DNA from: a virus
Strand: one strand, 5' to 3'
DNA length: 46,454 bases
IMG/VR virus record: IMGVR_UViG_3300032421_000005
Coordinates: 1 to 46,454 of that record
The position numbers were made by a program, and so were the translations under genes. Shown one piece after another: positions 28,821 through 46,454 of this stretch; the stretch's first letter is position 1; each line of letters starts with the position of its first letter. The notes beneath the pieces were generated by a model. That model saw nothing but the letters and a program-made list of their open reading frames with translations. It was not told the origin of the DNA and searched no databases.

Positions 28821-29146
28821 TGGGGGCTGAGCTTCTGAGCGCAGACGAGGCGGCTGCGTGCCTCCACATCTGCGAGCGGACCTTGCGCAAGCTGCGGAAG
28901 GAGGGCTTGATCCCCTATGTTGCGATCACCGACCGGAAGTTCCTCTACCGGCGCGAGGATTGCGACGCCTATCTCGAATCGCGCCTGCGCAAGGATGAAC
29001 CGTGTCCGTCTATAAAACCGACAAGTCCCCGTACTGGCAGTACGATTTCCAGCGCACCAAGGTCCGGTTTCATGGCAGCACGGGCTGCACGTCGAAACGC
29101 GACGCAGAAGCCTTCGAGGCCCGCATCAAGCGCGAGGTCGCTCTAG
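28817..29146 (+). CDS. xis: Excisionase-type (MerR/HTH_17-like) DNA-binding protein, 109-aa ORF whose last ~48 codons overlap int
   Basis: LLSADEAAACLHICERTLRKLRKEGLIPYVAITDRKFLYRREDCDAYL; AAGGAG upstream; directly precedes the integrase. Confidence 0.7.
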   Translation: MMGAELLSADEAAACLHICERTLRKLRKEGLIPYVAITDRKFLYRREDCDAYLESRLRKDEPCPSIKPTSPRTGSTISSAPRSGFMAARAARRNATQKPSRPASSARSL

Positions 29147-30131
29147 GCCATGCAGCCAAGCGCCCCATTACTCTGGATGCGGCCTGCCAGGCTTATTGGC
29201 AGGACAAGGGGCAGCACGAAAGCAGTTCCACCACGACCGACTATCAGCTCGCCAACCTGTGTGAAGGCATCGGAGCCGGGAAGTTGCTGAGCGCGATCGG
29301 AACAGAGGATTTCAGGCGCTACATCGCCAAGCGCCGCGCCACGGTGAGCAACGCCAGCGTCAATCGTGAATGGCAGCTCGCGCGCCGTGTCTGGAAGCAC
29401 GCTGCGGCGGCGGGATACGATCTGCCGATCCCCGGAACGCCCGACGCGATCGACTGGAGCAAGCTGCGCCTGGACGAACCCAAGGAGCGCGTGCGCGAGC
29501 TTTCTCCAGACGAGGAGAAGCGGCTGTTCGAACACCTGCCGGACAGCCTCAAGCCGGTGGTGGAGTTCGCCGCTCTATCCGGCCAGCGCCGCAGTTCGGT
29601 GATCGGGCTCGAATGGGATAAGATCGATTGGGACGGATGCCGCGCCACGATCACACAGAAGGGCGACAAGGAGCACACCTTCCCTCTCACACCGCGCATG
29701 GTCGAGCTATTGCGCGAGCAGCCACACGTGGAGGGTTGCGACTTCGTATTCACCTATGTCTGCGAGCGCCCCTCCCCAGCCCGTAAGGATCGTCCCCGGC
29801 GTTACAAGGGCACGCGCTACCCATTCAGCCCCCAGGGATGGATGCGGAAGTGGCGGAAGGCCCTCACCGATGCGAAGATCAAAAACTTCAAGTTCCACGA
29901 TCTACGCCACACCCGAGGCACGCGGGTGCTACGCGCGACGGGCAACCTCAAGGTCGTCCAGAAGCTCCTTGGGCATACCGACATCGCCACCACCGCCCGC
30001 TATGCCCACGCGCTTGAGGACGATATTCGCGCCGCGATGGTTGAAACAGAATCCCGGAATAGTACCGGGAAGAAGTTGACAGCACCCCGCAGAACCCGCA
30101 GAATCTCTAAGTCAAAAGAGGACATAGCATG

Positions 30132-30132
<1 letters not shown>
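29002..30132 (+). CDS. int: Tyrosine integrase, 376 aa
   Basis: HDLRHTRGT...LLGHTDIATTARYAH (H-x-x-R ... Y catalytic box). N-terminal SPYWQYDF...G.R arm-type region. GTG 29002 with AAGGA upstream. Confidence 0.9.
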
Positions 30133-30183
<51 letters not shown>

Positions 30184-30344
30184 ATTTCCGCCAGTTTCAG
30201 GAGCTTCCCGCCAGTCCGTCCGCGAACAATTGCGGTACGCAACAGAGCGGTACGGAGCAATTCCGGACGGTAAGTCCCAGAATAGTCCCGGGCGATGTTC
30301 AGGAGTCGTTCCCGGAGGGGCATACGGCCGAAAGCTGGGCGGCG

Positions 30345-30716
30345 ATGGTTCGCGCATCAGAGGCGCTTGATTGGGGTGGGCCGTCAGTTCCACTCTACCC
30401 GGACAAAGCGGAGCCCGGCGACCCGGTACACTACCAAAAGCCCGGCACGATATATTTCATCGGCGGCGATACCGGCGCGATCAAGATCGGCTTCACCACA
30501 ACGCTAGATGTCCGTCTGCGGCGGCTGCGTGCGAACTCCCCGATTCCGCTAGGCGTTCTCGCCAGCAAACAGGGCGTCGCATGGGATGAGCGGGCTTATC
30601 ACTTGCTCTTCCAGCGCCACCGCCTCCACGGCGAATGGTTCGCCCGTGCCCCGGAAATTCTCGCTGAGATTGACCGCATATCCCCCACCGCTTTCAGGAA
30701 GGGGGCTTCGGAATGA
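30345..30716 (+). CDS. T5orf172/MUG113-type (GIY-YIG-related) domain protein, about 123 aa
   Basis: GTIYFIGGDTGAIKIGFTTTLDVRLRRLRANSPIPLGVLA...ERAYHLLFQRHRLHGEWF. Start uncertain; the upstream part of track ORF 30129.. reads through the tRNA fragment. Confidence 0.7.
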   Translation: MVRASEALDWGGPSVPLYPDKAEPGDPVHYQKPGTIYFIGGDTGAIKIGFTTTLDVRLRRLRANSPIPLGVLASKQGVAWDERAYHLLFQRHRLHGEWFARAPEILAEIDRISPTAFRKGASE

Positions 30717-30967: not shown

Positions 30968-31174
30968 CTACTTCTCGCGGCGCTTCAGCTCACGCTCGAC
31001 GGCTTGGCGAACGAAGTCGGTTCGATCCTCGCCTTCCGTCAACACCTTCGCGATTCGCTCGAACGTCCCCGCCGGAAAGCGAGCTTGCATATTCTCAGAC
31101 CAGAGCGGCGGCCGTCCCACGGCGCGCGGCGTATCGCATATCACTTTTTCTGCCAAGGCTCGATTATTTCTCAT
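30968..31174 (-). CDS. Ribbon-helix-helix (CopG/Arc-like) regulator, 68 aa
   Basis: GRPPLWSENMQARFPAGTFERIAKVLTEGEDRTDFVRQAVERELKRRE. Divergent from the 31279 operon; ATG at 31174. Confidence 0.75.
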   Translation of the reverse strand: MRNNRALAEKVICDTPRAVGRPPLWSENMQARFPAGTFERIAKVLTEGEDRTDFVRQAVERELKRREK

Positions 31175-31222
31175 ATCACCTATTGACCCTATAAGTCGTA
31201 TCACTTATATAAGTCATATCAG
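31171..31222. promoter_or_regulatory. AT-rich divergent control region with direct repeats (candidate RHH operator)
   Basis: TATAAGTCGTATCAC (31190-31204) and TATAAGTCATATCAG (31208-31222), 18-bp period. A third TCATATCAC at 31171-31179 overlaps the RHH start codon. Confidence 0.55.
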
Positions 31223-31278: not shown

Positions 31279-31494
31279 ATGTTTTCTCGTTCCGCTCCTT
31301 TCGTGAAGACCCCTCGCGAGTGGGCCTCTCTTGCTCCGCGCCGTAGCGTTGAAAGCGCCGCGAAGGCTTATGCCAAAGCCAACATGGTTGCGGTCGTGAT
31401 GCTCGGGAACGACGACGCGGTCGCCTATCTCTATGACGCGGCAAACAATCGCGTCGCCAAGAAGATCTGCCGGGATGTGGAGTGGGGCGCGTGA
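31279..31494 (+). CDS. Hypothetical protein, 71 aa
   Basis: AAAGGAGG 7 nt upstream of ATG 31279. Confidence 0.75.
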   Translation: MFSRSAPFVKTPREWASLAPRRSVESAAKAYAKANMVAVVMLGNDDAVAYLYDAANNRVAKKICRDVEWGA

Positions 31495-31643
31495 AGCGCC
31501 TCCCCATCATTCGGCATGCCAGGTGGGCGATCCTCTGTGTGCGCTTCAATTTGTGGTGGGAGCGCATCGGCCGTCATCTGGGTGCGGTGCCGAACGAGAG
31601 CGACGTCCGGTTTCTAGAAGATGTTTGGAGTGGGCGAGCATGA
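31491..31643 (+). CDS. Trp/Arg-rich micro-protein, 50 aa (not in track)
   Basis: GTGA overlap upstream, ATGA overlap downstream. (M)KRLPIIRHARWAILCVRFNLWWERIGRHLGAVPNESDVRFLEDVWSGRA. Confidence 0.5.
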   Translation: MKRLPIIRHARWAILCVRFNLWWERIGRHLGAVPNESDVRFLEDVWSGRA

Positions 31644-31831
31644 ACCGCGAGGAACGGCTCATTGTGGCGTGGCTCCGATCCCAGAGGGGGAACCCCCAAG
31701 CAGCCGGCGAGGCGCAGCGGATGGTCCGGTTCTACGCCGAAATTTTCGCTGAAGGGATAGAGCGCGGCGAGCATCGCCCGCCGTCATATCAACCAACATG
31801 GGAGAACCCTGATGGCCCAACAGCCGCATAA
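31640..31831 (+). CDS. Hypothetical protein, 63 aa
   Basis: ATG 31640, in frame with track ORF 31433..31831. MNREERLIVAWLRSQRGNPQAAGEAQRMVRFYAEIF... Confidence 0.6.
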   Translation: MNREERLIVAWLRSQRGNPQAAGEAQRMVRFYAEIFAEGIERGEHRPPSYQPTWENPDGPTAA

Positions 31832-31979
31832 TCACTGTGATCAATGCCGCCACTGGCACAAGGGCTACATGCTCCACCGTTCGCGCGTGCCGAGCTTCTG
31901 CAACCGGCATTTCCATTCTCAAGCTGGCGATGATCCGGCCTGCAAGGATTTCGATCCGATCGAACAGGACGCAGCATGA
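31812..31979 (+). CDS. Cys/His-rich micro-protein, 55 aa (not in track)
   Basis: GGGAGA upstream of ATG 31812. MAQQPHNHCDQCRHWHKGYMLHRSRVPSFCNRHFHSQAGDDPACKDFDPIEQDAA. Confidence 0.45.
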   Translation: MAQQPHNHCDQCRHWHKGYMLHRSRVPSFCNRHFHSQAGDDPACKDFDPIEQDAA

Positions 31980-33347
31980 CCCCCGATCCGCGCCCGGATG
32001 AGAGATGCGGGGGGTGCCGGCAACATGCCCGCGCGTGTCGTCAGACGAGGGGAGAGGTCAGCATCCCCCTACGCGGCGAGCGCAGGGTTTGGAGTGGTTC
32101 GCGCTTCAACGGGGCCGCAACCGGCGCCCTCCACGCGCATCGCCGGGGTGCTTCCCCGGAGTATGTTGATCGCAGCGTTCACGTCGGCGTGTGCGCGGTG
32201 TCCACAATGCCGGCAGTGGAAAGACGCTTGGCTCTTGCGGCTCTCCCTGTCGATGGACCCGCATTCCGAACAGGTCTGCGAGGTGTAGGCCGCCGGCACA
32301 TAGACCAGCGTGCCGCCACGTTCTTCCAGCTTGTAGGTGAGCATCGTGGCGAATGCTCCCCAGCCTTGGTTGAGGATGGATCGGTTCAGACCGCGCTTCC
32401 CAGGGCCGGAAGCGGTCATAGCCTTGACGTTGAGATCCTCCATGGCGACAGCGCCGAACCGGCGGGCGATGTCCGTGGAAACCCGGTGTTGCCAGTCGCG
32501 GCGGGCAGCGGTGATGCGTGCGGCGAGGCGCGACACACTGGCGAGCCGCTTCATGCGTCGCCGCGAGCCCCGCTTGCATCGGGCGAGCGCGCGTTGTGCG
32601 CGGCGCTTTCGGCTATCGATCGCGACGAGACTCGTGGGGAGAGAGATGTTCTCGCCGGTGCTCAGCGTGAGGGTGTTGGCGACTCCGCGATCGATGCCGA
32701 CTGCGGGTCCGTGATTAGCGAGGGGATCACAGTCAATCCGGCAGAGGATAGAGACGTGCCATTCCCCGGCGGCACAGGCGACCGTGACTTCTCGAATGGA
32801 GCCTTGGATTGGCCGCGTATCGCGAAACTTGACCCAACCTATTCCCCGAAGGCGGATCGCCGACCATTTACTATTCAGCCGCTGGACGCGGATTTCTCGC
32901 CCGATATAGCGGAAGCTATCGTTGACACCCTTGCGCCGCGGAGACGGGTATCCTGCCCGCCCAGCAAAGAAATTGCGGAACGCCCTGTCCACATCCCGAA
33001 TGGCTTGGGCCGTACATGTTTGATAGACAGAACGCACCCAATCGAAATCTGCCCTCAAGGCCGTCAATTCAGCGCACTGGGATGCAAAGTTGATGTGTTT
33101 GCCAGTCGCCCGGAGATACTGCCGCCAATGGCAGTGCCTTTGCTCCCGAGCGATATTATAGACGGTGCGACAAACACCTGCGTATCGGATGAACTCCGCG
33201 CGCTGTTCTTCGCTCGGCGCGAGGCGATAGCGGTACGCGCGGTGGATCATCTCATTACTGTATTTGTTTCGCCGCCATTTGCAATCGAGAACAAGGGGAT
33301 CCCAGCCCCACCCCTCGATCCGCGCGCACAGGAAGGGGAGTAGGGGG
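31980..33347 (-). mobile_element. tnpA-less IS200/IS605-superfamily (IS1341-like) element carrying tnpB; ends approximate
   Basis: A single reverse-oriented tnpB fills the gap between two rightward ORF chains (stop at 31979, start at 33348). Near-identical 15-16-nt sequences at 31979-31993 and 33310-33325. Confidence 0.6.
32069..33250 (-). CDS. tnpB: TnpB (OrfB) RuvC-type RNA-guided endonuclease family protein, 393 aa
   Basis: MIHRAYRYRLAPSEEQ (N-terminal HTH), AVGIDRGV (RuvC-I), AVAMEDLNVK (RuvC-II), TSQTCSECG...FHCRHCGH (zinc ribbon), HADVNAAINI (RuvC-III). The upstream 194 aa of the 587-aa track ORF are antisense to real genes. Confidence 0.9.
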   Translation of the reverse strand: MIHRAYRYRLAPSEEQRAEFIRYAGVCRTVYNIAREQRHCHWRQYLRATGKHINFASQCAELTALRADFDWVRSVYQTCTAQAIRDVDRAFRNFFAGRAGYPSPRRKGVNDSFRYIGREIRVQRLNSKWSAIRLRGIGWVKFRDTRPIQGSIREVTVACAAGEWHVSILCRIDCDPLANHGPAVGIDRGVANTLTLSTGENISLPTSLVAIDSRKRRAQRALARCKRGSRRRMKRLASVSRLAARITAARRDWQHRVSTDIARRFGAVAMEDLNVKAMTASGPGKRGLNRSILNQGWGAFATMLTYKLEERGGTLVYVPAAYTSQTCSECGSIDRESRKSQASFHCRHCGHRAHADVNAAINILRGSTPAMRVEGAGCGPVEARTTPNPALAA

Positions 33348-33692
33348 ATGAGCGAACGCTTCGACGGCCCCGCGCTGGGAACGCGCATCAAGCTCCTTCG
33401 AGAGCTGCGGGATATGACCTTGCAACAGGTGGCTGACGCTTCGGGGCTCACGAAATCCCATGTCTGGGAACTTGAGCAGGGTAAGTCGGTAAACCCGACC
33501 GTTAATGCGGTGTGGGGGCTGTCTGCTGGGCTGTGCGTGAGCCCCGCCATGTTGCTGGGGCTGGATGACAAGATGCCGCCTGTCGATCCGGTGGCGATCA
33601 AGATCGCGGGCATCGTGGACCGTGAGATTAAGCGTGCAATAGCGGCGGCCCTGAAAGCCTCCCCCACCCCGACCGAGAAGGAAGACCGATGA
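33348..33692 (+). CDS. Xre-family HTH regulator, 114 aa
   Basis: LGTRIKLLRELRDMTLQQVADASGLTKSHVWELEQGKSVNPTVNAVWGLSAGL. GGAAGGGGAG upstream of ATG 33348. Confidence 0.8.
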   Translation: MSERFDGPALGTRIKLLRELRDMTLQQVADASGLTKSHVWELEQGKSVNPTVNAVWGLSAGLCVSPAMLLGLDDKMPPVDPVAIKIAGIVDREIKRAIAAALKASPTPTEKEDR

Positions 33693-34162
33693 TGTTCGAC
33701 ATGACCTATAGTGACGCTCTCGACAAAGCCGAGCACCTGATCGCCCTCGGACAGACGACTGTATATCTCAGAGATAAGGGGCAAGACTTCCCTTGGGATA
33801 AGGCCGTCAAGGTCGAAAGCGGAAACTCGCACCGGCTCTCCGGGCCGTCTTCGATGTACGTGATCGCGGAAGATGGTGGCCTTCAGTTCAAGCTGAATGT
33901 CGAGTTCGAGGACCGGGACGCAAACGGGCGCGGTGTCTCGCTGTTTGAGCGCGATCGGCTGCGGGAAGTGGCGATGCGCCTTCCACCTGCCGCCAGAACA
34001 TCGTTCGCAAACATGCTGGAACGGGAAGTGCTTTCCGGCATGGCGAAGAGGACGGCCGAAATTCGCGAGGCGATGAATGCGCAGGTCGATAGCGAAGACT
34101 GCGTTCGAGGATTGATCGCCTTCGCCCGCGACAGCGGGGACGCCCGAAAGGACCCGTCATGA
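33689..34162 (+). CDS. Hypothetical protein, 157 aa
   Basis: ATGA-coupled to the Xre gene. Confidence 0.75.
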   Translation: MMFDMTYSDALDKAEHLIALGQTTVYLRDKGQDFPWDKAVKVESGNSHRLSGPSSMYVIAEDGGLQFKLNVEFEDRDANGRGVSLFERDRLREVAMRLPPAARTSFANMLEREVLSGMAKRTAEIREAMNAQVDSEDCVRGLIAFARDSGDARKDPS

Positions 34163-34353
34163 AGGAACTGATCGAACGGGAGGCGGTGGTGCGGTGGCTG
34201 CGGAAACAAGCGGCGTTAGGCGATCTGGCGTTATTGCGCGCAGTCATCGGCAGCAAGGAGGAGCGCGACTTGGCGGCAGGTATTGTCGTCCTCACCCGCG
34301 CAACCGATGCCATCGAGCGCGGCGATCACCACAAAGGAGCCCCCGATGAGTAA
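34159..34353 (+). CDS. Hypothetical protein, 64 aa
   Basis: ATGA-coupled. Confidence 0.6.
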   Translation: MKELIEREAVVRWLRKQAALGDLALLRAVIGSKEERDLAAGIVVLTRATDAIERGDHHKGAPDE

Positions 34354-34579
34354 GGCTTTCATTCTCAGCGCGGCAGAGATCGCGCGGACATTGACCCCGG
34401 CGCAGTGCCGTATGCTCGTTGAGATCGATCGCGGGCAGCCTCGCCAATTCGCATTGGGCCGCGCGGGCTTTAAGTTGATCGACTTGGGGCTGGCTTTCGT
34501 CAACGAACTCGGCGCGCGCCACCTCACCGATCGAGGCCTCGCCGTCCGCCGCGAGATCATCAAGGGAGGTGAAGGGTGA
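34346..34579 (+). CDS. Hypothetical protein, 77 aa
   Basis: ATG 34346 preceded by AAGGAGCCCCCG. MSKAFILSAAEIARTLTPAQCRMLVEIDRG... Confidence 0.65.
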   Translation: MSKAFILSAAEIARTLTPAQCRMLVEIDRGQPRQFALGRAGFKLIDLGLAFVNELGARHLTDRGLAVRREIIKGGEG

Positions 34580-34845
34580 TCAGCAAGTTCACGCCACCGG
34601 GCATCAAGGTTGTAGCCCTTCGCACCGGCTTCGGGATCGTGGCGGGCAAGCTCTACACCGTGCGCGGGTTTGTTCTGAACCGCCATTGGCGCACCAAAGA
34701 GCCCGACCACCACGTCCTATTCGAGGAGATCGGGCCGCGAATGGGTAAGTTCGGCGAAGTCGGCTACCCGCGCGACGCCTTCAAGATACCAGACCTTCGC
34801 CGCACCAGACGGCAGATCTTCAACGAGGACTTGATCGATGCATAG
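34576..34845 (+). CDS. Hypothetical protein, 89 aa
   Basis: GTGA-coupled. Confidence 0.65.
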   Translation: MISKFTPPGIKVVALRTGFGIVAGKLYTVRGFVLNRHWRTKEPDHHVLFEEIGPRMGKFGEVGYPRDAFKIPDLRRTRRQIFNEDLIDA

Positions 34846-35155
34846 CACCCCCGACGAGCAGCTTGTGGAGGCGTGCGCGAGGGCGATCGACCCGTACCAG
34901 TGGACCCTTTTCGATCAGGGGCGCCTCCATCGCGCAGTGAAGAAAAGCGATCTATCGAGTTGGCAAAGGGCTCTCGATAGCATCCCCCTCGTCGGCGCCT
35001 ACTGCGCCAGGATCGCGGAGGAGGAACTGGAAAACCGCCGCGCCGATCTGAAACGCGCTCCTCTCGACAACTTCACGCGCGGCCAGATCAACACAGCCCT
35101 ACGGCTCGTAGCCGAAATCAAATCCCGCACAGGAGCCCCCGATGCCAACGACTGA
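34838..35155 (+). CDS. Hypothetical protein, 105 aa
   Basis: ATG 34838, 8-nt overlap with the upstream gene. Confidence 0.7.
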   Translation: MHSTPDEQLVEACARAIDPYQWTLFDQGRLHRAVKKSDLSSWQRALDSIPLVGAYCARIAEEELENRRADLKRAPLDNFTRGQINTALRLVAEIKSRTGAPDAND

Positions 35156-35444
35156 CGCGAACTTGGTGGCGAGGCTGCGGGAGAAAGCGCGGCCAAACAC
35201 TTTGGCACAAGCTGTCGTCGAGAAAGACGACCTCCGCGCCCTCCTTGAGCAGAACGATCGACTGGAGCGCGACATCGCCCGCCGTGATCGGATGGCCGCG
35301 ACATCGCAGAGGTTTTGGATACGCGCAGCCAAGGCAGCAATGGCCGGCGATCTTCGGGAGCTTCGCAATCGCGTCGACTTGGCTGAAGCGCCGCCCGTTG
35401 AAGTCGTGCTTTCCGCCCGCAACGCCCTCGAAGGGAAAGAGTGA
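35142..35444 (+). CDS. Coiled-coil hypothetical protein, 100 aa
   Basis: ATG 35142 preceded by CAGGAGCCCCCG. Confidence 0.7.
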   Translation: MPTTDANLVARLREKARPNTLAQAVVEKDDLRALLEQNDRLERDIARRDRMAATSQRFWIRAAKAAMAGDLRELRNRVDLAEAPPVEVVLSARNALEGKE

Positions 35445-35962
35445 TGGGATACACGATCGTAATCGGTGAAGCCTGTTTCGAGGGCGACAAGGACGAGGCT
35501 TATCTGCGTGTCTGGGCAGAGCCGCAGGCACATTCGGACGCGCCGACATTTCCCAATGATGAAATGACCGGCAACGGGAATAGTCGGTCGCCCTCATATA
35601 CCGGATGGCCCGAGTTCTGCCGCATGTCGGGGTTATACGGCATGTTCTTCGGCTTAGACGGTCGGCGTGACCCATATATGCGGCCCGACGAGAACTGCCA
35701 CCGTGAAACACCGATCATGGCAGACCATCCCGGATTCGCGCCAATCAACAAGCAAGACGTGCTCGCGGTGAAATGCGCGCTCGACCAGCACATTGCAAAG
35801 CACGGTGAGTTAGAGCCCGGCTTTCGGGGGTGGATGGAAAGAGAAGAAGATGCACCTCCAGATGCGGATGCCTGTGCCACGAGGGCAAGGCTTATCTGGC
35901 TTCATTATTGGTGCGATTGGGCAGTTAGGAATTGCAAATGGCCTGTGATCGCAAACTCATGA
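35441..35962 (+). CDS. Hypothetical protein, 173 aa
   Basis: GTGA/ATG start at 35441/35444; Trp/Cys-containing globular composition. Confidence 0.75.
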   Translation: MMGYTIVIGEACFEGDKDEAYLRVWAEPQAHSDAPTFPNDEMTGNGNSRSPSYTGWPEFCRMSGLYGMFFGLDGRRDPYMRPDENCHRETPIMADHPGFAPINKQDVLAVKCALDQHIAKHGELEPGFRGWMEREEDAPPDADACATRARLIWLHYWCDWAVRNCKWPVIANS

Positions 35963-36156
35963 TGCCTAACCCGCGGGTGGCTAATGGCCAATGGACGGAA
36001 GCCGTAGGGCCTATCGCCGCCAAGCTGGAAGTGGGAGCGACTTTTGGAGAGCGCACCGTGTTCAACCGCGAAGGATCTAAAGCTCTTGCCGAGTTGCTGC
36101 GCGAAATGGCCCGTATCATCGACAACGAGATCGAGCATCGAAAGGTTTCCGAATGA
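35959..36156 (+). CDS. Hypothetical protein, 65 aa (74 aa if ATG 35932 is used)
   Basis: ATGA overlap at 35959; same frame as track ORF 35932..36156. Confidence 0.6.
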   Translation: MMPNPRVANGQWTEAVGPIAAKLEVGATFGERTVFNREGSKALAELLREMARIIDNEIEHRKVSE

Positions 36157-36851
36157 CCGCCCCCACCGAGCCCCGCGCCGTGCTGCAAAGCTGCCCGTTC
36201 TGCGGAGGTGAGCCGCATGTCCTTTCGCCCGTCTATGTCATGGGGGTCGATAGCGATGAGCCTGATTTATTCAGCGCGGGCTGTGTGAAGTGCCAGATAT
36301 GGCAGCGCCGGCCCACGAAAGACGACACCATCGCCGCATGGAACGCGCGAGCATCCGCAGAGCAAGCCGCCGGGGGGGTGGAGCGTGTAAGGGAGGCGTT
36401 GCATATCGCCCTGATCGGTAACGTCGGCAGCCTCGAAAAGCTCACTGAATGGGACAAGGGTTATCGAGCTTGTGCGACAGACCTCGCAACGGTTTTTACC
36501 GCAGCCCCACCCGCCCAGCCGTCACCCGTCGAAACTACGGTATCAAACCCTCCGCCAGATGATACTGAAAGCGGGTTGAGTATAAAGTCCGCCGATGTCG
36601 CGGCGAGGGCGCTTACCGAGGCGTTGCGTCCGTTCATGCCGATCGAGACGCGCGACGGCCCGGATTATGCCGAAGTGACATTCGGGGACCATAAGTCGCA
36701 AGCGATGACGATGGTGCCCGCCGACTGGAATAAACTAGCGGCGGCATATGAAGCCGTGCGGCGGGAGGTGGGAATGGGTGAGTGCCTGAGATGCGGCCGC
36801 TCGATCGGTGAGCATAGCTGGGACACTTGCTCTCGGTGGGATCCTGAGTAG
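36153..36851 (+). CDS. Lar-family (restriction-alleviation-type) zinc-ribbon protein with a long C-terminal extension, 232 aa
   Basis: N-terminus CPFCGGEPHV...AGCVKCQIWQRRPTKDDTIAAWNARA matches the Lar-like pattern. C-terminal CLRCGRSIGEHSWDTC. Confidence 0.7.
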   Translation: MTAPTEPRAVLQSCPFCGGEPHVLSPVYVMGVDSDEPDLFSAGCVKCQIWQRRPTKDDTIAAWNARASAEQAAGGVERVREALHIALIGNVGSLEKLTEWDKGYRACATDLATVFTAAPPAQPSPVETTVSNPPPDDTESGLSIKSADVAARALTEALRPFMPIETRDGPDYAEVTFGDHKSQAMTMVPADWNKLAAAYEAVRREVGMGECLRCGRSIGEHSWDTCSRWDPE

Positions 36852-37007: not shown

Positions 37008-38315
37008 CTAGACCCCCAGGTCGATCCCGATCAGATCGTAAATCTCGATGTCCGCATTGCTGGCGCCGGGGTTTCCGCCCGATATAATCTGAGCCGTGAG
37101 GTTCGTGGCCGCTCCGGGGACTGTCAGATAGACAGAGTGAAACACCGAGCCTTCCATATTGGCGGAGGACAGAAGGTTCGCGGCACCGTTGAGCGGGAAC
37201 CAGTTCGTGCCTCCGCTTGTGGTGATCTTCGGCTGAAACTTCGCCCCGTTCGCGTTGAGGTTGGTCCCCAGCGTTCGGAAGCCGACGAACAGCTTGTGAT
37301 TCTGATACGCCGTTATCCCGCTGAACACGAATTGCAGCGCGCACAACGACGCCTGACCCGGAGCAAGGCGCAGCTTCTGTGTCTTGCCGAGAGACGGGGA
37401 AGGAGCAGCGCCGCCAAGGATGATCGAGCCCAGGCCGTCGGTGTTCGTGATGAACTGCCATCCTTGGGCGGCGCCGCCGGTCCCGCCCGTGCCCTGCATC
37501 GTGCCCCGCGCCGCGGTGAAGATGTTGCGGGGATCGGAGCTGATCGACTGGTTGCGCGTGTACGGATAGTTGAGCGAGCTGATCCAACCGGCCGCAATCA
37601 TGGCAGCGTCCAGCGTCGCGGACATCAGGGCCCCGCCGATGTTGCTCGGATGGGTATTGTCGGCATAGTAGGTGGCATCGAGCGCGATGCCGGTCCCGAG
37701 ATCCGACATGACCGGACGGAAATCGACGAAGATGGCGTTTTTCGCGAGATAGGCGCTGTAGAACTGCCCCGCCGGATCGGTCACATCAGCCTTGAGCGTG
37801 TCGCAGATGAAGTTGGTGCTGGCGTATTTCGTGCCATCCGCGAGATGGTTGATCGAGCATATCGCGACCTTCTTGCCCGCCGCGAGCACCCGCGTCGCCA
37901 TGTCGCGGACGTTCCACACGCCTTTGCCGGGGTTGCCGTCGGCAGTCGCGGCCGAGATGGTCTGAACCGCGCCACCACGATCATTGGTGGCATCGCAGAT
38001 CACCACGATGTCCGCCGACGGGAAGGTCGGGTTCAAGCAATCCGCATCGAAATTGGTATTCGACACCGAGGAATACGATCCCGGTCGCCCCTTGTTCACG
38101 GCGACATAAGCGCCGCGTTCCGGCATCTCGGTGAAGAAGGAATAATAGCCCGGAGCGGAGCCACCGAGAATGCTGTCTCCCGCCCCGTAGATGACCTTGG
38201 GAACAGTGGAGAGGCCGGGGATGAACGGGCCAGACGCACCCCCACTCCCCAGCCCGAGCCTCAACCCAAGCCCAAGCTCCAGCGGTTGCAGCGCCTTGTG
38301 GCGGAGATCGATCAT
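37008..38315 (-). CDS. SGNH/GDSL-type hydrolase (esterase) with C-terminal beta-rich domain, 435 aa
   Basis: Block I VIYGAGDSILGG; block V YYADNTHPS (D-x-x-H). ATG 38315 (TGATG overlap with the o-spanin stop); the track start is a TTG. Confidence 0.75.
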   Translation of the reverse strand: MIDLRHKALQPLELGLGLRLGLGSGGASGPFIPGLSTVPKVIYGAGDSILGGSAPGYYSFFTEMPERGAYVAVNKGRPGSYSSVSNTNFDADCLNPTFPSADIVVICDATNDRGGAVQTISAATADGNPGKGVWNVRDMATRVLAAGKKVAICSINHLADGTKYASTNFICDTLKADVTDPAGQFYSAYLAKNAIFVDFRPVMSDLGTGIALDATYYADNTHPSNIGGALMSATLDAAMIAAGWISSLNYPYTRNQSISSDPRNIFTAARGTMQGTGGTGGAAQGWQFITNTDGLGSIILGGAAPSPSLGKTQKLRLAPGQASLCALQFVFSGITAYQNHKLFVGFRTLGTNLNANGAKFQPKITTSGGTNWFPLNGAANLLSSANMEGSVFHSVYLTVPGAATNLTAQIISGGNPGASNADIEIYDLIGIDLGV

Positions 38316-38590
38316 CAACGGGCCCTTTCCGCGGCGATCACGGCCAAGAGTTGCAGCCGGATCTTCCCGGCTATGTCATAGAGATCGAGCGCGCCTGCGA
38401 CACACTGAGCGCCGGTGAAGGAGCCGTCAGCGTTACGGGGCATTGCTGGAAGCTCTGGCGGGGGTGAAAGCAGGTTCGCCGGCAAGCTGAGCGTTTGCAT
38501 TGGTGCGGGCGCGGTCGAACAGCCGGCCAGCATCAGCGTCCCCGCAGATAGTCCGGTACACAGGGCGATCGATGATCTTGACGCTTTCAT
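38315..38590 (-). CDS. o-spanin (outer-membrane lipoprotein), 91 aa, overlapping the i-spanin gene out of frame
   Basis: Signal plus lipobox MKASRSSIALCTGLSAGTLMLAGC; Pro-rich mature part. Starts inside 38433..38834 and extends past it. Confidence 0.8.
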   Translation of the reverse strand: MKASRSSIALCTGLSAGTLMLAGCSTAPAPMQTLSLPANLLSPPPELPAMPRNADGSFTGAQCVAGALDLYDIAGKIRLQLLAVIAAERAR

Positions 38591-45940: not shown

Positions 45941-46454
45941 CAGTAATCCAGATCATCCGTGCCGGATTTCACGGCACCATTGACGACGCCGATCAACGGC
46001 TGCGGCCCCCACTTGGTGATGCGGCCTTCCCGTTGACGGCTGAGCGCAAGATTGCCAGCGGCGACGCCTTCGGTCGCGCGGTTGTGGCGTTCGCGCTCGC
46101 TCGCATCGAGTTCCGCCCGTCGCGCTGCAATCTGTTCCTTGCCCGACAAGGCCCGCATCTGGAGGTCCTGGATCGTCCGAGGGTCATAGACGGTAGGGAG
46201 GTCGGGGAAATGCTGACCGTGGCCATATTGTTCATACATCGCCTTGGCCTGCGCCCTAGCAGCGTCATAGCTCGCCTGGTCGTGGACCCCGCCTAGCAAC
46301 TGGAGCGCGTTTTCGTTGATCTTGGCGTATGTCTCCAATTCCGCCTTTTGCGCATCGAGACGGGACTTATCGAAACTCATGGCACCGGGAATGTCACCGG
46401 CCGCAACGTAGGTTGCCCTGGCCTTCACGGGATCGATGGTCCCCGTGTTAGGGT
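45940..46454 (-). CDS. 3-prime part of the junction-spanning 242-aa coiled-coil virion protein gene (see 1..341)
   Basis: Stop at 45940-45942 (TGATG overlap with the start of the 1075-aa gene). The frame is open to the window end. The track start at 46428 is an internal GTG. Confidence 0.8.
   Translation of the reverse strand, partial: PNTGTIDPVKARATYVAAGDIPGAMSFDKSRLDAQKAELETYAKINENALQLLGGVHDQASYDAARAQAKAMYEQYGHGQHFPDLPTVYDPRTIQDLQMRALSGKEQIAARRAELDASERERHNRATEGVAAGNLALSRQREGRITKWGPQPLIGVVNGAVKSGTDDLDY
46328..46454. repeat. Terminal overlap, copy 2 (identical to 1..127)
   Basis: Exact 127-nt identity with the window start. Confidence 0.95.

Follow-up and report, generated by a model that had tools for sequence, protein, structure and literature searches.

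The window analysed here, that is, the whole 46,454-nucleotide (nt) stretch of virus record IMGVR_UViG_3300032421_000005, is the genome of a temperate phage, and at positions 32069-33250 it carries a tnpB gene on the minus strand. We consider it probable, on balance, that this gene forms the core of a non-autonomous, tnpA-less element of the IS200/IS605 family of insertion sequences (IS), of the IS1341 type, which lies antisense between two genes of the early operon and is kept there by TnpA-independent homing or retention. The encoded TnpB is intact and has no transposase partner in the window. The 3' end of the gene coincides with a structured RNA region that has a sharp boundary, and the strand opposite to tnpB is free of stop codons in one frame, as it is in most members of the same clade.

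An intact TnpB without a transposase

A preliminary description of this sequence had identified the 393-amino-acid (aa) product as TnpB from the motifs RAYRYRLAPSEEQ, GIDRG, AMEDLNVK, CSECG...CRHCGH and ADVNAAINI, and had proposed profile searches and a structural comparison as checks. The open reading frame (ORF) and all these motifs were found as described. The Pfam models HTH_OrfB_IS605 (residues 1-39, E 8e-10, 38.5 bits for a cutoff of 21), OrfB_IS605 for the RuvC domain (residues 175-279, E 1e-18, 68.2 bits for a cutoff of 30.5) and Cas12f1-like_TNB for the zinc ribbon (residues 297-363, E 5e-25, 87.9 bits for a cutoff of 26.3) all matched, and the NCBIfam model guided_TnpB (NF040570) scored 264.3 bits (cutoff 100). 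The NCBIfam model IS607_TnpB gave 139.7 bits, under its cutoff of 350, and the Cas12f models scored far under theirs. The best natural match among solved structures was ISDra2 TnpB (8BF8, 8EX9 and 8EXA; E 5e-36, residues 3-370), in which D191, E278 and D361 stand opposite D187, E271 and D356 of the window protein, as counted along the printed alignment. A family alignment of 38 sequences shows no variation at these three residues or at C330, C346 and C349, and the triad and the zinc ribbon are also present in 13 relatives of the clade, in agreement with the intact catalytic D/E/D triad first proposed. An AlphaFold2 model built on the alignment of 38 relatives (mean predicted local distance difference test score, pLDDT, 77.9) matched ISDra2 TnpB (8H1J, 8EXA) best and ISFba1 TnpB (8IAZ) as well in the PDB, with template modeling (TM) scores of 0.59-0.75 and E-values of 5e-21 to 4e-19. 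Judging from these alignments and this model, the window protein is an intact TnpB and not a nuclease-dead derivative, and RNA-guided cleavage activity is predicted for it.

The claim that the 46-kb circle holds no Y1 or serine transposase was upheld: tblastn of the window with three Y1 TnpA proteins from relatives gave a best E-value of 0.49, and a Pfam scan of 60 window ORFs found neither a Y1_Tnp (PF01797) nor a Resolvase domain. Thus the window lacks both the Y1 TnpA that an autonomous IS200/IS605 element contains and, in the scanned ORFs, the serine recombinase TnpA of IS607-type elements. No CRISPR array and no tandem or spaced repeats lie near tnpB, where a type V (Cas12f-like) CRISPR-Cas system would have an adjacent array, and there is no group I intron around tnpB of the sort that defines an IStron. 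In Rfam, no family reached the gathering threshold anywhere in the window, and the only match in 31500-33800 at E-values up to 5 was a chance one (E 2.2). Of the features of IS1341-type elements, a tnpB-only status and a defined right end are present, while TCAT is a candidate transposon-adjacent motif (TAM) on the strength of relatives and the left boundary is uncertain.

A conserved RNA region at the right end

The aligned 3' flanks of the relatives fall into two types of right end, long and short. The long type finishes ...CCCCGnCCTTCAGGGnCGGGGAAGATGTTAA, and tnpA is often found divergent from or upstream of such copies. The short type finishes ...GCCGCGT(stop)GGATGCTGA, 9-15 nt past the stop codon, and it is this type that the window has, its right end being at 32058, 11 nt past the tnpB stop. 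In all members with a short right end (hereafter the short clade) the conserved block ends ...GGATGCUGA, and the sequences diverge from the very next base.

Folding of 13 short-type 3' ends with RNAalifold gave three helices upstream of a terminal hairpin, with compensatory changes in 9 of 20 pairs. For the 15 core pairs, 93.8% of the alignment cells were paired, versus 76.5% in shuffles, and none of 500 shuffles reached the observed value. The covariation score was 0.438 versus 0.159 in shuffles, again with none of 500 as high, and sliding the 3' partners by 1-3 columns reduced the pairing to 36-52%. Moreover, the terminal hairpin before GGAUGCUGA is predicted in all 30 of 30 relatives, while its stem sequences are widely different. 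These comparisons support a conserved and functional omega-RNA scaffold at the 3' end of tnpB, the RNA itself being a prediction. Searches for intrinsic terminators that would block read-through gave only two weak matches, both of them minus-strand matches within tnpB and no more than chance would give.

A tnpA-less clade in phage-type regions

TnpB homologues were detected by tblastn in 619 of 50,697 GenBank phage records, 353 of them with at least 80% query coverage, so a solo TnpB in a phage is an ordinary and familiar annotation, usually labelled 'transposase'. The best phage matches, Komagataeibacter phages phiKX1 and phiKX2, are 47.5% identical to the window protein. In the protein database, the window's own protein is followed by nothing above 67% identity and by thousands of homologues at 55-62%, largely from Alphaproteobacteria.

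The closest relatives (45-67% identity to the window) form a tnpA-less clade: within the flanks examined, no tnpA was found beside any relative with a short right end, versus 70 of 262 related loci with an adjacent tnpA. The members of the short clade are 45-77% identical to one another (median 57%). All eight of its relatives with annotated gene calls lie in phage-type regions (L090, L091, L092, L093/094, L095-099, L100, L266 and L268), among genes for P22-type portal, Sf6-type terminase, ERF, YqaJ, Rad52, NinB, S24 repressor and integrase. At seven of these eight loci, as in the window, tnpB is the lone antisense gene in a run of small phage genes, and the gaps from tnpB to its neighbours are 5-47 nt on most sides and up to about 210 nt in L091. 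In synteny, the closest TnpB loci share only tnpB with the window. Near-identical short-type copies also occur in differing contexts (L161, L161.2 and L162); L161 is a 21-kb contig (Ga0070668_100000831) with two copies, the left ends of which differ by about 31 nt. The unrelated contexts and the two L161 copies thus indicate that the lineage has inserted repeatedly.

A stop-free antisense frame

In the window, the antisense frame that is codon-aligned with tnpB contains no stop, where 4.2-4.5 would be expected from phage codon usage (P ~0.012), and the remaining two antisense frames contain 10-14 stops. The resulting antisense ORF begins with an ATG that overlaps the stop codon of the upstream phage gene (Table 1) and ends with a TAG at 33341-33343, 4 nt before the ATG of the XRE-family gene. 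In one public assembly of the same phage (L102), the gene call annotates this 455-aa antisense ORF and omits tnpB.

The same frame was compared across non-redundant tnpB genes. Zero stops were found in 14 of 17 short-clade, 10 of 65 long-clade and 11 of 42 unclassified genes (Fisher P = 4e-7 for the short versus the long clade), while the GC content at third codon positions (GC3) is equal in the short and long clades (0.70 vs 0.72). Under the Leu and Ser codon usage of the long clade, the binomial chance of at least 14 of 17 is 7e-11; the synonymous sites are effectively independent, given that identity among the short-clade members is only about 57%. The orientation of the copies was then considered for the loci with annotated gene calls. 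All eight antisense-placed copies (the window, L090, L091, L092, L093, L095, L100 and L268) have zero stops, and the co-oriented copies have 12 (L266), 1 (phiKX1) and 6 (Cimandef), which gives P = 1/165 in a Fisher test done by hand. L268 was fetched as a prospective test and proved to be antisense-placed with zero stops, as predicted. The TGA of the antisense ORF overlaps the ATG of the next gene (ATGA) in L090, L092 and L095; its end lies at most 8 nt from the next start in L093, L268 and the window, and 38-129 nt off in L100 and L091. Orientation had also been assigned from ORF and frame-plot heuristics, which contradicted the annotated calls at L091 and L100 and gave no significant link with context, and this approach was dropped.

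The simplest reading would be that selection keeps the antisense strand translatable where the element lies antisense in an operon. We would further suggest, tentatively and with more doubt than confidence, that this is a phage-adapted lineage made harmless in operons by antisense insertion, often at an ATGA start, together with an open antisense strand. Ribosomes could then run through the element, avoid Rho-dependent polarity and re-initiate on the displaced gene, to which translational coupling would be restored, or alternatively the antisense ORF could encode a second protein. A cyanophage preprint reports that tnpB and an overlapping reverse ORF are both transcribed (10.64898/2026.02.14.705889), and no other report of this kind surfaced.

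Elsewhere in the window, the phage gene at 37008-38318 on the minus strand (436 codons, no PHROG match) also has a stop-free codon-aligned antisense frame, with about 5 stops expected. Its GC3 of 0.80 may explain this.

Guide, TAM and left end

The guide of ISDra2 is the approximately 16 nt after the right end, and this length was taken over for the window. The predicted guide 16-mer occurs once in the window, with no second match even when 3 mismatches are allowed, and the sequence in the guide position is different in every relative. The guide would thus be the local phage flank, which is the usual layout of an insertion sequence and argues against a retargeted weapon.

The TAM is probably TCAT, as suggested by near-identical copies in differing contexts (L118/119/120, L019/020 and L213/214), the flanks of which converge on TCAT at the left end. 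Phage phiKX1 (L264) shares the junction of TTCAT with CCTAAACTCC, TCAT stands at the start codon of the neighbour in five of the eight loci with annotated gene calls, and the sole TCAT upstream of tnpB in the window is at 33351-33348. In the canonical relatives (L118-L120, L019/L020, L213/L214 and L264) the flanking TCAT, read on the other strand as ATGA, resembles the start of a gene in the opposite orientation (MNAP.., MKEA.., MSDG.. and MTAS..), and the whole family may insert at start codons.

With TCAT at 33351-33348 as the junction, the element spans 32058-33347. If the junction is at 33348, the reconstructed empty site, ...GACGAGGGGAGAGG followed by ATGAGC, has a Shine-Dalgarno sequence properly spaced before the ATG. 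A general position of the element between Shine-Dalgarno sequence and ATG was considered and rejected as a rule: a strict test gave 6 of 29 versus 1-3 of 29 in controls, which is suggestive for the window (GGGGAGAGG before ATG). The total extent would be about 1.29 kb (~32058-33347), the left boundary being uncertain between 33288 and 33347.

In the inner left end, TTGCAA (33284-33279) and TACAGT (33262-33257) form a conserved promoter-like pair, and TACAGT stands 6 nt ahead of the ATG. Most short-clade members have a corresponding TTGCnn-N16-TAnAnT with the -10-like box 6-7 nt before the start codon, and the -35/-10-like pair is without a Shine-Dalgarno sequence in L090, L092, L100, L108, L134, L160, L182, L190 and L195. 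A -10-like box 6 nt before the ATG implies a leaderless mRNA, and this arrangement suggests that tnpB is translated from such an mRNA in the short clade. A strict sigma-70 scan called no promoter at the left end. The outer left end (33289-33347) has no likeness to other left ends, and blastn-short of 33251-33347 against all loci returned random matches only. The left ends of the short clade are 26-97 nt long (26 nt in L095) and lack the CCCCGG...CCGGGG hairpin of the canonical relatives, of which L019 shows a strong hairpin at that end; in the window it is the right end that has a clear hairpin (32087-32067). The pair L093 and L094 was tried as an informant for the left end and rejected, as the two already part within a phage gene, 280 nt upstream of tnpB.

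On either side of the element stands one copy of an imperfect 14-nt direct repeat (31980-31993, CCCCCGATCCGCGC; 33312-33325, CCCTCGATCCGCGC), which has no equally good match elsewhere in the window. In the frame of the antisense ORF, each copy encodes ...DPR.... This repeat could be the real insertion joint or could have arisen by chance.

The phage genome and the neighbouring genes

The first 127 bases of the window recur exactly at its end (46328-46454), and therefore the assembly is circular; the 127-nt terminal direct repeat is the assembly overlap of a circular genome and not a biological repeat. The window encodes large terminase, portal, head-closure, tail and primase/helicase proteins, and Pfam adds capsid, endonuclease VII and glycoside hydrolase 19 domains. 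Directly after the gene for a tyrosine integrase lies a tRNA-Pro-like sequence (Table 1), where ARAGORN found no complete tRNA and which is likely the core of the phage attachment site (attP). In L263 (SRR9009769), assembled independently from the same phage, the sequence breaks 30 nt past the integrase gene, and a mixture of integrated and excised forms would be expected to give such a break. The window is thus a temperate phage genome, as had been concluded from the start.

Next to the attP candidate, a protein with a T5orf172/MUG113 domain is encoded at 30129-30716. In the early region, the protein encoded at 36153-36851 has a weak Lar-like (restriction alleviation) domain.

Concerning the surroundings of tnpB, the preliminary description had called it the only reverse-oriented gene among rightward ones, exactly filling the gap between a stop at 31979 and a start at 33348. 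Both borders are correct, those of a 55-aa phage gene and the XRE-family regulator gene. The first part is true within the run 31279-36851 only, and a short minus-strand ORF lies further left at 30968..31204, about 0.9 kb from tnpB. Homologues of the 55-aa gene, about 82% identical, are present on two other contigs (L103 and L104), and no tnpB follows either of them.

Table 1. Coordinates of the tnpB element, its predicted parts and the adjacent phage features in the window.
Feature	Position	Strand	Remark
tnpB coding sequence, 393 aa	33250..32069	-	ATG at 33250, stop codon 32071-32069
omega-RNA-like scaffold, minimum extent, overlapping the 3' end of tnpB	32058..32159	-	from alignments of relatives and covariation
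scaffold stem-loop	32159-32143	-	
scaffold outer stem	32140-32128 paired with 32107-32097	-	
scaffold inner hairpin	32129-32111	-	
scaffold terminal hairpin, CCCUGCGC/GCGUAGGG	32087-32067	-	encloses the stop codon
scaffold 3' tail, GGAUGCUGA	32066-32058	-	
predicted guide, CCTCTCCCCTCGTCTG, ~16 nt	32057-32042, may reach ~32038	-	phage DNA directly 3' of the right end
predicted guide-matching target sequence, CCTCTCCCCTCGTCTGACGA			
candidate TAM, TCAT	33348..33351	-	ATGA on the plus strand, the XRE start codon and one base
left-end region	33251..33347	-	inner part 33251-33288 promoter-like; outer part 33289-33347 element or phage DNA
antisense ORF, 455 codons, codon-aligned with tnpB	31976..33343	+	ATG overlaps the upstream TGA (ATGA 31976-31979)
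55-aa phage gene, convergent with the 3' end of tnpB	31812..31979	+	stops at 31979
XRE-family helix-turn-helix (HTH) regulator gene, 114 aa, divergent from tnpB	33348..33692	+	Pfam HTH_31, HTH_3
tyrosine integrase gene	29002-30132	+	domain match
tRNA-Pro-like attP candidate, 47 nt	30133-30179	+	abuts the integrase gene; 97-100% identity with part of tRNA-Pro genes

Discussion

The element that we propose would consist of a short left end with a -10-like box, an intact tnpB and an omega-RNA scaffold over the last ~100 nt of tnpB. Transcription running into the adjoining phage DNA would supply a guide of about 16 nt from 32057. The ribonucleoprotein (RNP) of TnpB and omega-RNA would then recognise the element-free locus, in which the TAM, probably TCAT at the ATGA of the XRE gene, abuts the match to the guide, and would cut this site. 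The element would be copied in by recombination with a genome that carries it, whether that of a co-infecting phage or of a resident prophage. The phage may tolerate the element owing to its intergenic position and to an antisense strand that is open throughout and joins the upstream stop to a point 4 nt before the next start; an effect of this on the expression of the operon is predicted. For bacterial IS605-family elements, TnpB has been described to cleave vacant sites in the manner of a homing endonuclease (PMC10690162), and TnpA-independent 'non-restorative homing' has been discussed for plasmids and, in theory, for phages (PMC13565253). In the papers found, homing was demonstrated for no phage TnpB, and phage TnpB proteins were treated in passing or speculatively.

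The window element resembles ISDra2 TnpB and its omega-RNA (8EXA, 8H1J, 8BF8) in the order of domains, the triad, the zinc ribbon and the fold, and also in a scaffold which overlaps the 3' end of tnpB and runs past the right end into the flank. It differs in that its TnpB is only about 26% identical and without a tnpA partner, the candidate TAM is TCAT instead of TTGAT, the right end lies 11 nt past the stop, and the left end is short with no clear TnpA hairpin. The IS1341-type tnpB-only elements, including that of phiKX1 (47.5% identical), are likewise solo tnpB genes with their own ends and TCAT at the left end, but phiKX1 and the chromosomal relatives have the long right end ...CCCCGnCCTTCAGGGnCGGGGAAGATGTTAA and a strong left-end hairpin. 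The copies in the isolated phages phiKX1 and Cimandef are, moreover, co-oriented with their neighbours and have antisense-frame stops, whereas the clade of the window has a compact right end and usually lies antisense to its neighbours, with no antisense stops.

Outside the TnpB elements, the free-standing homing endonucleases Seg and Mob of phage T4, considered together with 'transposon non-restorative homing' (PMC13565253), offer a likeness, as a nuclease gene between conserved phage genes could cleave alleles without it and enter them by recombination at co-infection. In contrast to Seg and Mob, recognition in the window would be guided by RNA and depend on the presence or absence of the element, not on sequence variants read by the protein. 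IStrons, which combine a group I intron with TnpB, are described as TnpB elements that cut the cost of insertion to the interrupted transcription unit (PMC10690162). The window element has no intron by Rfam, and its suggested device for lowering the cost is a translatable antisense strand instead of splicing.

Several observations weigh against homing or retention as the explanation. No element-free copy of this phage was found in the collections searched, and because of this the TAM, like the insertion site and the left boundary of the element, is a prediction; the comparison with related phages that the preliminary description had proposed for finding an empty site therefore did not yield one. 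When viral contigs were scanned with the two flanking proteins, one of these had no match and the other only a mosaic relative (L101), in which the XRE gene alone is shared with the window. In the two contigs with homologues of the 55-aa gene (L103 and L104) similarity is lost inside the gene, and an exact search of viral contigs with 21-nt flank sequence gave no match. The other public contigs with this region, a JGI contig and L102 (Logan SRR9009769), are the same phage with the element present, L263 being the rest of the same genome from the same sample as L102. As to the RNA, no Rfam family matches the scaffold and the 3' region of the window folds no better than shuffles (z = 0.23), so that the scaffold structure rests on comparative evidence. 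Similarly, the left-end region has no hairpin like that of the right end and folds no better than shuffles (z = 0.54). The closest relative is 67% identical, so recent activity is beyond judging. Finally, the spread to new sites without a left end suited to TnpA is unexplained, since homing alone cannot enter non-homologous phages, yet relatives are found in unrelated contexts.

The preliminary description had left open whether the gene is a passenger, a homing-type retention device or a weapon, and the anatomy of the element, with a scaffold that ends at 32058 and is followed by local flank, favours homing or retention. It is rather unlikely that we are dealing with a passive passenger, that is, a remnant without activity that travels with phage recombination and is intact merely because it has had too little time to decay. 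Such a remnant would be consistent with the single copy, the missing tnpA, a left end without a recognisable hairpin, the lack of known relatives above 67% identity, and the mosaic nature of phage genomes, in which the neighbour genes have homologues in other contexts. But a clade as divergent as 45-77% has kept the D/E/D triad, the zinc ribbon and the stop-free antisense frame and has maintained the RNA helices by compensatory changes. The retention of these features despite the divergence indicates that purifying selection has long acted on the protein, the RNA and a third feature. Mobilisation in trans, in which a Y1 TnpA of the host moves the element and TnpB is only restorative after excision, we regard as unlikely. 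Copies in differing contexts do imply real insertion events, relatives at 53-58% identity have an adjacent tnpA, and the copy in phiKX1 is canonical, with a left-end start and hairpin close to the chromosomal type of L019/L020. The left ends of the short clade, at 26-97 nt, are however without the canonical hairpin, and no tnpA lies at the short-clade loci within the flanks examined.

A co-opted weapon, namely a TnpB with a fixed guide that destroys rival phages or a host target in superinfection exclusion or host takeover, seems improbable to us. The nuclease is intact and its gene lies in the early or immunity region beside the XRE regulator, and cutting of element-free kin would also exclude them, so that homing and exclusion overlap (PMC13565253). 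The guide position is nevertheless ordinary flank that is different in each relative, the genome contains no other match to the guide, and neither a CRISPR-like array or tandem repeat nearby nor any other sign points to retargeting. Far less probable than these is a TldR-like, nuclease-dead regulator that represses a promoter by RNA-guided binding. TldR proteins are nuclease-dead repressors derived from TnpB, and some are encoded by phages; regulatory genes are also adjacent to tnpB here. TldR proteins show loss of RuvC residues or C-terminal truncation, whereas in the window protein D187, E271 and D356, the full zinc ribbon and the C-terminal region are all present and invariant in the clade, and the guide is local flank. 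This alternative, which the preliminary description had kept in view, fails because the catalytic triad is intact.

As first stated, the finding is one more tnpA-less TnpB in phages and leaves the understanding of such elements unchanged, and a 393-aa nuclease with a ~100-nt scaffold and a predicted 4-nt TAM is of routine interest for genome-editing surveys. If the antisense frame is functional, there is also a warning for annotation, as either strand may be called, and in one public assembly of this phage it is the antisense ORF that is called. Moreover, a functional stop-free antisense frame would be an undescribed way for a mobile element to cancel its own polar effect, parallel to the splicing of IStrons. 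A lineage of compact TnpB-omega elements that survives in phage operons without a transposase would provide a natural system for testing TnpA-independent RNA-guided homing.

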